The notes: generated by a model not told the origin, from the sequence alone. 64,000 nucleotides of DNA from Candidatus Cloacimonadota bacterium (GCA_034722995.1 JAYEOL010000008.1:9975-73974), one strand, 5' to 3'; positions 10,421 to 17,966 are shown, counted from the first letter of the stretch. Translations and numbers: made by a program.

Positions 10421-12295
10421 TTATTTCAAAAGCAGACATTTCTTTGTATCAATAACTTTATCACCTACTTTTAATCTATAAAAATAAATGCCTGAACTTA
10501 CTAATTTGCCATTTTCGTCTTTTCCATCCCATTCAATTGTAGTCATTGGACATTGGTCATTTGTCATTGGTATTAATGTCTTTATAAGTTGCCCTTTTAT
10601 GTTATAAATTTTTATTTGTGTATTCTTTGCCTGCCGGGGCGTATCCGCCAGCTGGCGGAGAAGACCGGTGGCTAAATTAAAAGAAATTGTAGTTGTCCCG
10701 ACTTTATCGGGATTGAATGGGTTCGGATAGTTCTGGTTTAATTTGGTAGATGTATCAGGAATATCATCAATCCCTTCTTCAATTATTGTGACTGTAACTG
10801 GGACAATGATGGTTCCAACATTTGGATCAGAGGTAAATATAACATCAAATTCTAATACTGTTCCAGGTGTTTGTCCTGTAGTGTTTAACAGTAGGCGCCA
10901 ATCATAACTTTGTCCGGGGGCTATAATACCATCTGTTGTAGTTGTAGAAAAATAAAATAAACTATCATTAGAACAGAAAGAACTACTTGTCTTTTTTTTC
11001 AAATTCATTACTATATCTTTTGATTTTGAAGTATTTATAAAAACTTTATTATTCGCATTATTCAAATTAGGATTTACAATATCCACAAACCAATGTATAG
11101 GTACATCTCTGTAATTTTGTATTGTGAGATAAACCGCAATACTATCATCAGGAGCCATAATTGTATCTATATAAGTAGGTGATATTGACATTGTAGACAA
11201 AGAAGATATATCTAAATTTAAAGTACTGGATGATGGAATACTAACCATTTCTACTATTGGACAAAAATAACTAATATAATAAGTAAACCAGTAATCACCA
11301 GGTATTATTGGGAAAATTGTAAATTCACCATTTTCATTTGTATAAGCATTATAATATAAATCCCACTGAGTACTTATAGCATTAACAGTAACACCTTCTA
11401 TAGGGTTACCACAACTATCAGTTGCTGTTACTACCAATGTGCTGTAATATGGTACTGGCCACGCATAGTAAACAATTACATCATAAATATACCAATAATT
11501 GAAATTATATGTATCACCACCATGTGAACGGAATTTAATTTGTATTGTCTCACCTTCATATTGAGACATATCGCAATATTCCCAAATAGTTCCACCTGGT
11601 GAACCCCAATCACCATTATAGTCCAAATCCCATTCAAATATCAAAGTTTCTTGTCCATCATTAATAATCCAAATTTCCATCACTTCTCCAAAATCTGTAG
11701 CATAATCATGTATATACATATTTACATTTAAACTAATGAAAGTTGCTCCATAGGGTATCCATATTTTTGGAGAAATAAGTGACATATCATAATTGGTAAC
11801 TGATGGTGACCAGTTTAATTTTGCTGCTTCGCAATCAGAATCCCATTCCCAATTATTCGGAATTAATGGATCTGCTCTCCACCCAGTTAAATGCCAATCT
11901 TCATAAAATGTTTCGTAAAATCCACTAGGTATATATGATGTAGCAGTATCTACATTAGAATTTACTGATTCTCCTTCTGAATATACTGCTGTTGCCCAGT
12001 ATGTATATTCAATTCCTAAATAAACCATATAATCATAATATGTATTTTGAGTATTATCTAAATATACATATCTTCCGAGATCGCTCCGATATAGATAATA
12101 TCCAATAAGGTTATAATTTCCTTGTGATGGTTCATCCCAACTAAGATCAACACGACCATTATTTCCTATTGCATTAAAATTATTTGGTGGTGGTAGAATT
12201 GTATCTTTAATAGCAATATTTGTATCAGCGAAAGAGAATTCTGAACCTATTAATATAATTACAATAAACAGGAATAATATTTTCCTTTTCATCAT
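10421..12295 (-). CDS. secreted T9SS cargo protein (FN3-like plus CarbopepD_reg-like domains); paralog of 15531-17966
   Basis: Signal peptide. The N-terminal ~250 aa are nearly identical in pattern to the 15531 gene. CTD at the C-terminus. Confidence 0.75.
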   Translation of the reverse strand: MMKRKILFLFIVIILIGSEFSFADTNIAIKDTILPPPNNFNAIGNNGRVDLSWDEPSQGNYNLIGYYLYRSDLGRYVYLDNTQNTYYDYMVYLGIEYTYWATAVYSEGESVNSNVDTATSYIPSGFYETFYEDWHLTGWRADPLIPNNWEWDSDCEAAKLNWSPSVTNYDMSLISPKIWIPYGATFISLNVNMYIHDYATDFGEVMEIWIINDGQETLIFEWDLDYNGDWGSPGGTIWEYCDMSQYEGETIQIKFRSHGGDTYNFNYWYIYDVIVYYAWPVPYYSTLVVTATDSCGNPIEGVTVNAISTQWDLYYNAYTNENGEFTIFPIIPGDYWFTYYISYFCPIVEMVSIPSSSTLNLDISSLSTMSISPTYIDTIMAPDDSIAVYLTIQNYRDVPIHWFVDIVNPNLNNANNKVFINTSKSKDIVMNLKKKTSSSFCSNDSLFYFSTTTTDGIIAPGQSYDWRLLLNTTGQTPGTVLEFDVIFTSDPNVGTIIVPVTVTIIEEGIDDIPDTSTKLNQNYPNPFNPDKVGTTTISFNLATGLLRQLADTPRQAKNTQIKIYNIKGQLIKTLIPMTNDQCPMTTIEWDGKDENGKLVSSGIYFYRLKVGDKVIDTKKCLLLK

Positions 12296-12410
12296 AAGCC
12301 TCCCTTTTTCTTGTAATTATTTCTTAAAATTTAGATTTAATAGTCAAGAAATATTATTTGAAATTATATTTGATATAATTGTTACGGTTAAACTCCTATT
12401 ACTCAAATAA
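12296..12410 (-). promoter_or_regulatory. conserved promoter/5' leader, copy 2 of 3 (upstream of the 10421-12295 gene)
   Basis: Near-identical to 9159-9270 and 17967-18087. Confidence 0.45.
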
Positions 12411-15464: not shown

Positions 15465-15530
15465 TTTTTAGTTCCTTATATTTGTAGAAATTTAGCCACG
15501 AAGATACAAAGTCTGGAGCAAAAAAGAAAA

Positions 15531-17966
15531 CTATTTCATAAGCAGACATTTCTTTGTATCAATTATTTCATCTTCAATTTTAAGTTGATAAAAGTATAAG
15601 CCTGAACTTACTAATTTACCATTTTCATCTTTCCCATCCCATTCAATTGTAGTCATCCGCCAGCTGGCGGATTTGCCATTTGTCATTGGTATTAATGTCT
15701 TTACAAGCTGACCTTTGGTATTATAGATCTTTATCTCAGTATCATCTATGTTTTTATGGCTAAGAGAAAAAGAGATTGTTGTTGAAGAATTGAAAGGGTT
15801 GGGATAGTTTTGGTTTAATTTGGTAGATAGTATTTGAATTTCATCAACTCCTACACTCAATTCAAGATGAATAGGGATAACACTTTGTCCTATATCAGGA
15901 TTATCCGTATTTACAATAATATCAGCATAATAGTTACCCAATTCTAATCCATCAGTATCTACAGTTACTAATAGTGGAGTAGTAGTGATATGATTAAATG
16001 TTCCAGACATTGGCTCTACTGTCAACCAATAAGACATTCCAGGTGTAAGATAAATAATAATATCGGCAATCAATTCTGCTTGAACAATAGGATCAGTAAT
16101 TGCTGCAAAGGAAGCTGTAGTAAATACTGTTTTGAATATACCTGAATCAAACTGGTTAGCACAGATACCCTGAGGAACTGGATTTGTAATATTGAACAAA
16201 TCTTCTCCCACATTATCAGTAAACTGGTTTATATATAAGATGTCTTGTACAAAAAAATTATATCCCTCTGCAAGAGAACCATCTACACCTTCTACTGAAC
16301 CTATAGCAGCTTGGGAAATCAACCAATTATCTTGAACAACACTTCTCATGCCAAGATAATCGTATGGGAATTGTCCTTCAGAGAAATCTCCTGCTGATGG
16401 ATAGGAAGCCCGTAGATAGTCATGAGCAGAAAGGAATAATGCGCCACCACCTTCAAGATAGACACCAAGATTTATCTCATCATTATCTGTCATACAGTCG
16501 TGACCATAGTAACCCCATGATTCACCGCTGAACCAAATAATTACTTCATATTGTTGCATTGTTGCCAAATCAGGTCCATCCTGAGTTAAGTCTGTTATTT
16601 CATAATAGGTGTATGCATAGCCTACTACATCAAGAGCTGCCTCGAAGTAAGGCCAAACATCTGTATAACCAGCTGCTGATGAACTTCCATCTCTATCTAC
16701 ACACAAAATGCTCGGTCGTTCCTTTATGACATAATTTATATCTATCGTGAAATCAACAGGTCCCGTACCAGTATTGGAAATGTTTAATGTGTCAATTGCT
16801 ATATCTCCAATATTGCAAAGCTGGAATTCAAAGCAGGTCGGAGTAAATATAAGTTCTGGAGCAGTCATTATCATATTTAGTATCGTAGTTTGATTAGGAA
16901 GGGTTTCAACATCTTCTTCAACCATAACATTATAGTGTTCTAATTCAAAAGTAATATCATATATTCCTGTCATCATAGAATCAATTGAATATTCACCATT
17001 TTCATTTGTTAAAACATTGTAATATGGAACTCCTGCTATATTGTCTTCAGCATGCACAGAAACATTTTCAAGAGGATTACCAGAATTATCTGTAACTGTT
17101 CCTTGCAATGTTCCATAATCAGGATATATTAAATAATGAAACCATACCATATAAATATACCAGTAATTAAAATTGAATGTATCTTCACCATGTGAACGGA
17201 ACTTCAATTGAATTGTCTCTCCTGCAAATTGATCCATATTTGTGTATACCCAATCAGTTCCACCTGAAGAACCCCAGTCATCGTTTTCATCCAAATCCCA
17301 CTCAAATATCATTGTCTCCTGTCCATCATGAATTATCCATATTTCCATCACTTCGCTTGAATCTACACTATAATCATTTATATACATACTTATTGTTAAA
17401 TCAAATATATGAGTTGAATCTTGAGGTAAAACAAATTGTGGAGATATCAAAGACATATCATAATTGGGTACTGAGGGTGACCAGTTTAATTTTGCTGCTT
17501 CGTAATCAGAATCCCATTCCCAATTATTAGGACTCACAGGATATGTTGTCCAGCCTGTTAAATGCCAATCAACATAAAAAAATTCAGGTTCAGGACCAAA
17601 ACCATAGGGTGTTGCTGTACAAGTATCTGATGGTTCTGATTCACCTTCAGAATATACTGCTGTTACCCAATATGTATATTCAACACATACATATACCATA
17701 TAATCGTGATATGGGTTTTGAGTATTATCAAAGAAGAAATATCTACCAATATCACTTCGATAAAGATTATATCCAATTAGTGTATAAGTAGATTGAGAAG
17801 GTTCATTCCAAGATAGATTATTATGATAAAGACTACCCCAAGCCATAAAATTGATTGGTGGAGGGAAAATGGTATCTTTAATAGCAATATTTGTCTCCGC
17901 AAAAGAGAATTTTGACCCTATTAATATAATTACAATAAAAAAGAATAATATTTTCTTTTTCATCAT
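15531..17966 (-). CDS. secreted T9SS cargo protein (811 aa); paralog of 10421-12295 at the N-terminus
   Basis: Signal peptide MMKKKILFFFIVIILIGSKFSFAETNIAIKDTIFPPP shared with the 10421 gene. Terminal T9SS CTD. Confidence 0.75.
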   Translation of the reverse strand: MMKKKILFFFIVIILIGSKFSFAETNIAIKDTIFPPPINFMAWGSLYHNNLSWNEPSQSTYTLIGYNLYRSDIGRYFFFDNTQNPYHDYMVYVCVEYTYWVTAVYSEGESEPSDTCTATPYGFGPEPEFFYVDWHLTGWTTYPVSPNNWEWDSDYEAAKLNWSPSVPNYDMSLISPQFVLPQDSTHIFDLTISMYINDYSVDSSEVMEIWIIHDGQETMIFEWDLDENDDWGSSGGTDWVYTNMDQFAGETIQLKFRSHGEDTFNFNYWYIYMVWFHYLIYPDYGTLQGTVTDNSGNPLENVSVHAEDNIAGVPYYNVLTNENGEYSIDSMMTGIYDITFELEHYNVMVEEDVETLPNQTTILNMIMTAPELIFTPTCFEFQLCNIGDIAIDTLNISNTGTGPVDFTIDINYVIKERPSILCVDRDGSSSAAGYTDVWPYFEAALDVVGYAYTYYEITDLTQDGPDLATMQQYEVIIWFSGESWGYYGHDCMTDNDEINLGVYLEGGGALFLSAHDYLRASYPSAGDFSEGQFPYDYLGMRSVVQDNWLISQAAIGSVEGVDGSLAEGYNFFVQDILYINQFTDNVGEDLFNITNPVPQGICANQFDSGIFKTVFTTASFAAITDPIVQAELIADIIIYLTPGMSYWLTVEPMSGTFNHITTTPLLVTVDTDGLELGNYYADIIVNTDNPDIGQSVIPIHLELSVGVDEIQILSTKLNQNYPNPFNSSTTISFSLSHKNIDDTEIKIYNTKGQLVKTLIPMTNGKSASWRMTTIEWDGKDENGKLVSSGLYFYQLKIEDEIIDTKKCLLMK

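Follow-up and report, generated by a model that had tools for sequence, protein, structure and literature searches.

A 64,000-nucleotide stretch of DNA from Candidatus Cloacimonadota bacterium (referred to here as the window; GC 32%) encodes six type-A sorting domains of the type IX secretion system (T9SS), all on the minus strand (genes 7299, 9271, 10421, 12411, 15531 and 57339), and a short GC-rich palindrome lies within two of these C-terminal domains (CTDs). Between 7299 and 17966, five T9SS cargo genes follow each other in tandem with near-identical 3' ends, compared with two in the syntenic contig L152 (6769-10396), which points to a recent local expansion and to concerted evolution of the sorting-domain ends. 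A sequence-only reading of the window had reported an exact 14-bp palindrome in the 10421 and 15531 genes, and the 14-base palindrome CCGCCAGCTGGCGG was indeed found at 10645-10658 and 15657-15670. The translations that it gave for the 10421 (...FNLATGLLRQLADTPRQAKNTQIKIYN), 12411 (...PMINDQCPMTIIEWDGKD) and 15531 (...PMTNGKSASWRMTTIEWDGKD) genes were correct on re-translation. An intergenic hairpin that it had placed near 59879-59910 was also recovered, and carries at its apex (59887-59900) the sequence CCACCAGCTGGCGG, with one mismatch to CCGCCAGCTGGCGG. Matches to the 14-mer were absent from 100 dinucleotide-preserving shuffles of the window, which, at this GC content, bears out the earlier argument that chance is an unlikely source of the repeat.

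Since one extra base on each side is common to all three window copies, the conserved unit is the 16-mer TCCGCCAGCTGGCGGA and not the 14-mer. This unit forms a stem-loop (TCCGCC-AGCT-GGCGGA), and the T at -1 and the A at +1 recurred in five to six of six secondary copies at other loci, which lie outside the selection imposed by the search pattern. The stem TCCGCC/GGCGGA recurs with other tetraloops, for example AACT, GGCT, AGTC and CCCT; the conserved feature is therefore the stem-loop, not a double-stranded DNA site. The first copy stands at the tip of a 44-nt GC-rich hairpin element that makes up most of an extra segment, LATGLLRQLADTPRQA, in loop 1 of the 10421 CTD, a segment of +30 nt relative to the other CTDs in a DNA alignment of eight. 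The third copy belongs to the intergenic hairpin, which lies 48 nt upstream of the ATG at 59831, the start of the sixth CTD gene; its fold has a z of -3.7 on the minus strand, where the G>A variant of the core is G-U compatible.

The sorting domains belong to the T9SS type-A CTD family (PF18962 / TIGR04183), for which a PF18962 match at the extreme C-terminus was scored against the Pfam gathering score of 27 bits. The domains without inserts of the 7299 (35.3 bits) and 9271 (32.7) genes and those of the 57339 (35.1) and 15531 (27.8) genes exceeded this score, and those of the 12411 (24.3) and 10421 (22.4) genes fell below it because of their inserts; once the inserts were deleted in silico, the 10421 domain rose to 30.6 bits. 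An AlphaFold2 model of the 10421 CTD (predicted local distance difference test score 84.7) is a beta-sandwich of six long strands (25-30, 49-54, 60-64, 74-79, 92-100 and 103-112), and the extra segments at 18-22, 31-48 and 65-73 all lie between strands. In an alignment of 48 CTD sequences, NYPNPF, W79, G92, Y94 and Y96 are invariant and both palindrome segments fall in columns that are gapped in almost all other CTDs. The model and the alignment thus upheld the proposal that the palindromes occupy variable loops. Since they are missing from paralogs, from orthologs and from about 40 further CTDs, they are insertions and not conserved residues, and no conserved residue block was seen: depending on the gene, one and the same DNA encodes RQLAD, SASWR or PPAGG.

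Further carriers were found amongst the CTDs of other contigs. Loop 1 holds the palindrome in the RQLAD frame in the window 10421 gene, L173, L223 and L191 (LLRQLADTP), in the PPAGG frame in L166 (SPPAGGYAVAG), and again in a Bacteroidales T9SS CTD (L092, PF18962 53 bits). Loop 2 holds it in the window 15531 gene and its ortholog in L152 (SASWR), and in the PPAGG frame in a Cloacimonadota-type CTD (P0067). Coding DNA of CTDs makes up about 3% of the window.

The tandem array of five cargo genes with alike 3' ends raises an explanation without any mobility, in which the palindrome is a lineage-specific loop sequence passed on by inheritance and by gene conversion amongst tandem CTD paralogs. 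The presence of the 15657 copy in the L152 ortholog fits this explanation, as does the agreement in frame and orientation of the loop-1 copies in the window, L173, L223 and L191. However, the two coding copies of the window share neither loop nor frame and have unrelated flanks, and the element of L166 is in another frame. The 16-mer also occurs in the prolyl-tRNA synthetase (ProRS) gene of L152, in the Bacteroidales CTD, in pseudo-copies of tRNA genes, in the ends of a miniature inverted-repeat transposable element (MITE)-like repeat and in housekeeping genes of Patescibacteria. These copies outside CTDs already contradict an origin by inheritance and conversion, which we regard as very improbable.

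Filled and empty sites

Comparison of loop 2 at the DNA level in the eight aligned CTDs revealed two alleles. The empty form, AAT-GTCCA-ATGACT, is found in the paralogs 10421 and 12411 and in the ortholog of L154 (62% identity), and the filled form, AAT-CCGCCAGCTGGCGG-ATGACT, in 15531 and its syntenic ortholog in L152 (66% identity). At the 15657 junction, 5 nt (GTCCA) have thus been exchanged for 14, a net gain of 9. Contig L152 is syntenic with the window over ProRS, a cargo gene, a C10 peptidase and DinB, and its ProRS gene carries the 16-mer (KIQSASWRTKIEIL) where the window ProRS reads KIQNINIEIL. The corresponding DNA is AATATTAAT in L152 and TCCGCCAGCTGGCGGACAAAA in the window, with flanks that are 85% identical, and a solved ProRS is also shorter at the position of the L152 insert. 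Variation in presence and absence between related genomes was therefore seen both in ProRS (L152 versus the window) and in CTD orthologs (L152 versus L154). The claim of insertion in frame made by the sequence-only reading needs to be divided: the copies are in frame, but at neither coding copy is the insertion a clean one.

Similar replacements were observed near tRNA genes, where partial 5' copies of tRNA-Lys and tRNA-Cys genes stand just upstream of the intact genes. The pseudo-tRNA-Lys 5' half of L070 has the 16-mer where the adjacent real tRNA has GCAACTGC, and two pseudo-tRNA-Cys halves of L035 have TCCGCCAGCTGGCGGA and TCCGCCCCCTGGCGGA instead of the D-loop GCCGAGTGGC. One end of a MITE-like element of Mucilaginibacter flavidus has AGCAACCT where the 16-mer would stand. 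Across the filled and empty pairs, 5-10 nt were replaced by the element with a gain in length of +6 to +12 nt, and the replaced nucleotides often form a small quasi-palindrome like GCCAGCTGGC. Additional tRNA-associated copies were noted in L249, L243, L224 and L206; in L249, a pair of 9-bp direct repeats (CTCGCCCAC) encloses a 29-nt unit within the 3' end of a tRNA gene.

The likeness of the replaced segments to the core (GCCGAGTGGC and GCAACTGC compared with GCCAGCTGGC), together with a PvuII-type site (CAGCTG) at the centre of the 16-mer, could be explained by an iterated palindrome of the HIP1 type, in which near-matches are perfected by biased mismatch repair tied to a CAGCTG-type methyltransferase. 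We give this explanation very little credence, since length differences of +6 to +12 nt between filled and empty alleles are beyond substitution, 16 nt exceed any methyltransferase site, and it is the stem that is conserved while the loop varies.

The surroundings of the sites are rich in short repeats. Within 18 nt of sites, direct repeats of 6 nt or more were enriched (24% versus 7%), inverted repeats likewise (12.5% versus 5%), and many copies lie within short tandem-repeat tracts. Loop 2 of Cloacimonadota CTDs is itself built of heptamers, with PMTNDQCPMT encoded by (CAATGAC)n, SIVNSQSSI by (TCAATAG)n and GFRISDFGFG by (GATTTCG)n, whose copy number is variable (P0001 has one extra unit), and loop 1 'ATDLHRFSQ' corresponds to (CACAGAT)n. 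The net gain of 9 at 15657 equals 16 minus 7, so that slippage by one heptamer unit could have restored the frame after a gain of 16 nt. Short repeats of a similar kind flank hairpins in intergenic DNA too.

Distribution, reading frames and genomic context

A scan of GTDB with the 17-mer pattern ATCCGCCAGCTGGCGGA, taking one genome per species, identified at least 120 loci, mostly in low-GC Patescibacteria, Bacteroidota and Cloacimonadota. Amongst the matches listed (L032-L111) were about 33 from Patescibacteria (candidate phyla radiation), about 20 from Bacteroidota and 3 from Cloacimonadota, along with Elusimicrobiota, Neomarinimicrobiota, Bdellovibrionales and one archaeon. Of 140 sites, 97 lay in loci with GC <= 0.46. 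Three copies occur within 8 kb in the isolate M. flavidus (L068), where the 16-mer lies within the inverted ends of the MITE-like element, which is about 150 bp long. The settings of the 16-mer include intergenic hairpins, MITE-like ends, pseudo-tRNA 5' halves, essential genes and, repeatedly, the loop of CGTCATTGCGA-type repeats (L003, L006, L068, L076, L080 and L125). The element is specific neither to this genome nor to secreted proteins.

The shortness of the motif, and the resemblance of matches in GC-rich genomes to ordinary IRQLAE/IRQLAD coding sequence, would suit an artefact of chance, composition, assembly or adapters. However, composition alone predicts a more than 10-fold preference for GC-rich genomes, opposite to the low-GC bias observed, and the shuffles gave no match. 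Copies are also in frame in long open reading frames (ORFs), the same insertion appears in independent assemblies (an NCBI metagenome-assembled genome and the JGI contig L152), and the element is present in the isolate L068. For the low-GC copies an artefact is already refuted, and its probability overall is negligible.

Low-GC sites fell in stop-free frames of at least 150 codons in 38% of cases, compared with 78% of random positions, so that coding DNA is underpopulated by the element but by no means free of it. Of the low-GC copies, about 60% lie outside long ORFs and appear non-coding. Amongst the sites in frames of at least 200 codons, the Pro-Pro-Ala-Gly-Gly reading was found in 24 of 32 (p = 1.7e-6 against one third), and sites outside such frames were spread roughly evenly over the three frames with no strong bias. 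An excess of PPAGG restricted to long ORFs is the pattern that a selection filter for loop-compatible peptides would give. The genes that host coding copies include those for cysteinyl- and glutamyl-tRNA synthetase (CysRS and GluRS), PNPase, RecJ, SMC, TsaD and glutamate dehydrogenase, and in the alignment of the L037 CysRS to a solved homolog, NPPAGG stands exactly opposite a gap of 6 residues.

The longer unit around the first window copy is also widespread. The central 24-mer of the 44-nt element was found exactly in 96 metagenome contigs with GC of 0.29-0.51, where about 0 are expected by chance, and 85 unique contexts gave the consensus GCCTGYCNCGG-24mer-ACGGRTGG for the longer unit. About three quarters of the 24-mer copies are non-coding, those clearly in CTD loop 1 are the ones in the window, L173, L223, L191 and L166, several adjoin tRNA genes, and nested forms, with a longer hairpin in place of the 24-mer, are common (for example L209 and L228).

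The exact conservation of the core across phyla keeps alive the main rival to mobile or recombining DNA, namely a structured element with a function. Either as RNA or as single-stranded DNA, the hairpin would then be bound or processed by a conserved host factor, for example as an RNA-stability or processing hairpin or as a site for a replication or nucleoid factor. Selection would maintain it at every place of occurrence, and the coding copies would be tolerated by-products. Consistent with such a function, 16-24 nt are exact across phyla, and the unpaired flanks CGTA/GAAG and a 5' GCCTGYC leader are conserved. The outer stems differ yet stay complementary (mean minimum free energy of -21.2 kcal/mol versus -19.5 kcal/mol with the 3' flanks permuted), although such complementarity would also follow if the core had simply landed at the apex of hairpins already present. 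Additionally, several copies precede a start codon by 20-40 nt, copies adjoin tRNA genes, and the mismatch of the third window copy is compatible with a G-U pair when read on the strand of the gene that follows it.

Other observations speak against it. The 44-nt element upstream of starts was found 15 times in sense and 14 times in antisense, and a riboswitch or leader was rejected because the downstream genes are unrelated and orientation is unbiased. An intrinsic terminator was likewise rejected, as a T-run within 14 nt was present at 31% of sites versus 24% of random positions. The lack of orientation bias, the unrelated neighbours and the lack of T-run enrichment together argue against a cis-regulatory or terminator role. 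In the window, the only Rfam match at gathering score was a tRNA, and around the three copies and in L075 nothing better than E = 2.9 was obtained. Copies in essential coding regions, pseudo-tRNAs and other repeats are also hard to fit to one function, and a functional element, though worth keeping in view, seems to us unlikely.

The same 17-mer gave 29 matches in IMG/VR, none of them in DNA with GC <= 0.46; these were GC-rich coding or chance sequence, the exceptions being a few repeats on contigs with a GC content of about 50%. The 24-mer had no exact match in IMG/VR. A phage vector was rejected on these two results.

Other hairpin families at the locus

Several intergenic hairpin families besides the 16-mer also occupy CTD loops, as indicated by a family B, a third family and an element at 57417. 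Family B, GTCCCGAT(N2-4)ATCGGGAC, has five copies in the window. The copy at 12658-12674 encodes SRFNRG at the same CTD site in the 12411 gene as the 10696 copy in the 10421 gene. The copy at 3172 lies exactly in the linker of RNase R between the CSD2 and RNB domains ('SRYIGT'), and those at 27029 and 31644 are intergenic. A GTAG stands 0-2 nt upstream of three of the window copies, and family B, unlike the 16-mer, may be a GTAG-tagged repetitive extragenic palindrome (REP).

The third family, CCCG(W)(K)AGATAG...CATCTAACGGG, is represented in the window by an intergenic hairpin at 59925-59953, beside the third copy of the 16-mer, and its homologs lie in CTD loop 1 of other Cloacimonadota (L001 1430-1458, 'IPIDSKHLTGQ'; P0017, 'SPLDSKHLTGQ'). 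The element at 57417-57447 swaps the otherwise nearly invariant WDGKDENGK of the sixth CTD for WDVLEIPASAGTG, and PF18962 still scores 35 bits. The CTD sites of the 16-mer are also taken by other hairpin families, for example as NPRFTRGQ in L153 and IPIDSKHLTGQ in L001. An intergenic spacer of 317 nt (31426-31742) holds at least five unrelated hairpins together with TCTCTGTGT tandem repeats.

A few further GC-rich features were noted. A MITE-like element at 60617-60707 has the inverted ends GTCATTCC...GGAATGAC, and its repeat class (GTCATTGCGA / GTCATTCC) carries the 16-mer in the loop in other phyla. In 610 kb of low-GC loci, CCTGCCGGCAGG was the only other recurrent GC-rich palindrome. A second GC-rich palindrome common to several genomes, CCTGCCTGCCGGCAGGCAGG, was seen at L043 132, L053 405, L098 134 and L137 5112 (also L131 1965), and the GluRS of L131 holds both NPPAGGQ and DLPAGGQG. 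A GC-rich run at 7762-7784 in the 7299 gene, GGTGGTGGCGGAGGTGGTGGCCA, is presumably poly-Pro on the minus strand.

Table 1. Coordinates of palindromes, hairpins, host domains and flanking repeats (window positions unless a contig is named)
Feature	Position	Strand	Remarks
16-mer core, copy 1	10644..10659	.	encodes LRQLAD in 10421 gene
44-nt GC-rich hairpin element	10629..10672	+	GCCTGCCGGGG-CGTATCCGCCAGCTGGCGGAGAAG-ACCGGTGGC; antisense to 10421 gene
18-bp perfect palindrome ATCCGCCAGCTGGCGGAT, copy 2	15655..15672	.	core 15656-15671; SASWR, CTD loop 2, 15531 gene
Intergenic hairpin, copy 3	59880..59909	.	TGCGAAT-CCACCAGCTGGCGG-AC-ATTCGCA
T9SS type-A CTD, 10421 gene	10421..10735	-	hosts copy 1 and a family-B hairpin
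T9SS type-A CTD, 15531 gene	15531..15812	-	hosts copy 2
T9SS CTD, 12411 gene	12411..12698	-	'empty' allele NDQCPMT at loop 2; family-B hairpin 12658-12674
CTD loop-2 heptamer repeats	10540-10575, 12535-12560, 15675-15690; L001 300-345; L002 5150-5185, 6835-6870		
Partial 5' tRNA-Lys/tRNA-Cys copies	L070 3985-4040, 4120-4196; L035 3225-3400		just upstream of intact genes
Abutting 10-bp direct repeats	L054 2689, L092 7377, L102 3380		two exact, one 9/10; all in short tandem-repeat tracts
Family-B hairpins	3172-3189, 10696-10712, 12658-12674, 27029-27045, 31644-31661; also L153 4521 and 7511		
Family-B hairpin TCCCGACTTTATCGGGA	10696..10712	.	within 10421 CTD; encodes NPDKVG
Related 'CCTGTC + GC hairpin' element	57417..57447	+	CCCTGTC-CCCGCGGACGCGGGG-ATCTCGAGG in sixth CTD (57339 gene)
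Intergenic relative	31425..31466	-	GCCTGCC-AAAGCCTTGTGCGGC-GGGCAGG...; abuts start codon of BatD-like gene; TCTCTGTGT repeats on flanks

Nature of the repeat and comparison with known systems

The 16-mer module probably belongs to a family of GC-rich hairpin repeats of low-GC bacteria that are very small and non-autonomous, and selfish or recombinogenic in nature; they would be a counterpart in bacteria of mitochondrial GC clusters and of Rickettsia palindromic elements. Some copies of the module are bare and others cap a longer GC-rich hairpin, for example the 44-nt GCCTGCC...GGTGGC element, and new copies would arise by imprecise, substitutive integration in which a few target nucleotides are replaced. 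Frequent targets would be short tandem-repeat tracts and the tips of small hairpins or quasi-palindromes that were already in place. That junctions are substitutive, that hairpin tips and repeat tracts are preferred and that a regular duplication is lacking argues for template switching during replication, for ectopic gene conversion amongst hairpins or for a trans-acting single-strand enzyme, over a classical cut-and-paste transposase. Most surviving copies are intergenic, and within genes selection would keep only copies that are in frame in loops or linkers, preferably in the PPAGG frame.

The T9SS sorting domain is removed from its cargo after secretion. Amongst the features that may make these CTDs a recurrent host are their permissive inter-strand loops and this cleavage, which would leave the mature cargo unaffected. 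The CTDs are also numerous and evolve in concert, and their slippage-prone heptamer loops could restore the frame. The sequence-only reading had proposed a mobile or recombinogenic element that is tolerated in loops; of this, the tolerance in loops stood, and a recombinogenic element appears as likely as a mobile one.

Several observations weigh against this interpretation. Transposition is inferred, and the presence/absence pairs are about 15% diverged at the DNA level, so that their junctions may have been blurred since. A mobilising enzyme was looked for without success: Pfam scans covering 20 ORFs of the window identified neither a transposase nor a REP-associated tyrosine transposase (RAYT), and in an all-versus-all BLAST of 742 ORFs near sites no family occurred in more than 7 of about 85 loci. 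A regular target-site duplication was not found, with abutting 10-bp direct repeats at only 3 of 181 sites. A neutral parasite would not usually keep 16-24 nt identical between phyla; such exactness could instead reflect a sequence-specific role or a host factor that is itself conserved. Additionally, the apparent enrichment in CTDs rests on one 64-kb window and the collected loci, and the several loop-1 copies of shared frame and orientation may be one insertion that spread by CTD duplication or gene conversion.

A search by tblastn of 1.8 Mb of loci with an IS608 TnpA query, which is a weak test, gave one match, in an unrelated GC-rich viral contig, and thus no gene of the IS200/IS605 type. 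The three abutting 10-bp repeats are too few to call a target-site duplication, though consistent in length. Tags were also considered, as GTAG near 15655, 10690, 27023 and 31640 had suggested a GTAG- or CGTC-tagged REP. This identity was rejected for the 16-mer, since each of the two tags was present within 10 nt of the core in just 2 of 192 arms. The GTAG beside 15655 is merely part of Thr-Thr codons.

More tentatively, the 16-nt hairpin module and its 24-45-nt derivatives could circulate horizontally amongst distant low-GC lineages, namely Patescibacteria, Bacteroidota, Cloacimonadota, Marinimicrobia and Elusimicrobia. They would spread without an element-encoded enzyme, by capture of hairpin tips and repeat tracts through host replication or repair, and would write PPAGG, SASWR and RQLAD into the loops of essential proteins and T9SS signals. 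Such a module would be for bacteria, and across phyla, what GC clusters are for mitochondria, and no smaller selfish DNA element would have been described.

If the interpretation as selfish or recombinogenic DNA is true, selfish palindromic DNA in protein genes is widespread in uncultured low-GC phyla and not mainly a matter of Rickettsia and fungal mitochondria, and its reach includes the aminoacyl-tRNA synthetases, PNPase, RecJ and SMC of Patescibacteria. An element of 16-45 nt that is identical across phyla would raise the testable question of which process or enzyme copies it and how it crosses between phyla. The insertions would also provide a natural map of permissive sites in the CTD, with three or four inter-strand loops taking 3-10 extra residues, which would be useful for engineering secretion tags. 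Annotation is affected as well, since inserts push real sorting domains under the Pfam cut-off and non-coding copies yield spurious small ORFs (…IRQLAD…, …PPAGG…).

A literature search returned no paper with the exact sequence and nothing relevant joining PPAGG to palindromes. Amongst known repeats, MITEs such as Correia/NEMIS and ERIC are non-autonomous small repeats with inverted ends that are intergenic and sometimes intragenic. The element of about 150 bp in L068, with the 16-mer in its inverted ends, is MITE-like; unlike MITEs, the bare 16-mer is far smaller, has no fixed-length target-site duplication and has no identified parent insertion sequence. HIP1 of cyanobacteria, an 8-bp motif that spreads by substitution, is like the 16-mer a short GC palindrome over-represented in coding and non-coding DNA throughout a lineage. 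It differs in that filled and empty pairs of the 16-mer are changes in length and that the feature conserved in the 16-mer is a stem-loop.

The Rickettsia palindromic elements (RPEs) of Ogata et al. (2000) are reportedly both intergenic and in frame in many protein genes, essential ones included, at surface-compatible positions. RPEs and the 16-mer element share this in-frame insertion in many genes, but RPEs are about 100-150 bp long, confined to Rickettsia and not GC-rich islands, whereas the element described here measures 16-44 nt, and similarity in sequence between the two would not be expected. RPE-4 and RPE-6 have been classed as CGTC-tagged repeats (PMC3733652), and the 16-mer is not so tagged. 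REPs are imperfect palindromes of 20-40 nt with many copies, mostly extragenic, of which a minority lie entirely within ORFs; those of the GTAG class are associated with RAYT transposases and those of the CGTC class have no known transposase (PMC3733652). Together, RPEs and intra-ORF REPs are bacterial precedents for selfish palindromes in protein genes. In size, the 44-nt form fits a REP and the bare 16-mer does not; the window has 3 copies in 64 kb. REP families are also specific to a species or genus, whereas the 16-mer core is common to several phyla and shorter than any described REP.

The closest match in behaviour is provided by the GC clusters of yeast and fungal mitochondria. These are short palindromic hairpins, rich in GC within a very AT-rich genome, that are mostly intergenic with some in frame, as in var1 (PMC8811140). 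They merge and shuffle in modules, their loops change faster than their stems, and they are found near tRNA genes. They are suspected to be mobile and to be recombination hot spots, and no dedicated enzyme is known for them; counted amongst them are the 'byp' elements of Magnusiomyces, which are bypassed in translation, and, in Neurospora mitochondria, GC-rich palindromes on the flanks of tRNA genes (PMC8811140). The 16-mer shares the GC-rich palindrome in an AT-rich genome, the combination of intergenic and in-frame copies, the modular merging and the tRNA neighbourhood; this is a likeness of behaviour and no evidence of common descent. GC clusters are organellar, whereas the 16-mer element is found in free-living and episymbiotic bacteria of several phyla with a core of only 16 nt that, unlike GC clusters, is identical across them. 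GC clusters have short AG/TAG terminal repeats that are taken for target-site duplications, and for the 16-mer no conserved di- or trinucleotide repeat of this type was present in the composition of the flanks. Copies of the 16-mer that are in frame with a PPAGG bias read as translated, in contrast to the bypassed byp elements. Altogether, the element differs from known palindromic repeats in its size of 16-45 nt, the lack of tags and of terminal repeats, and its identity across phyla.

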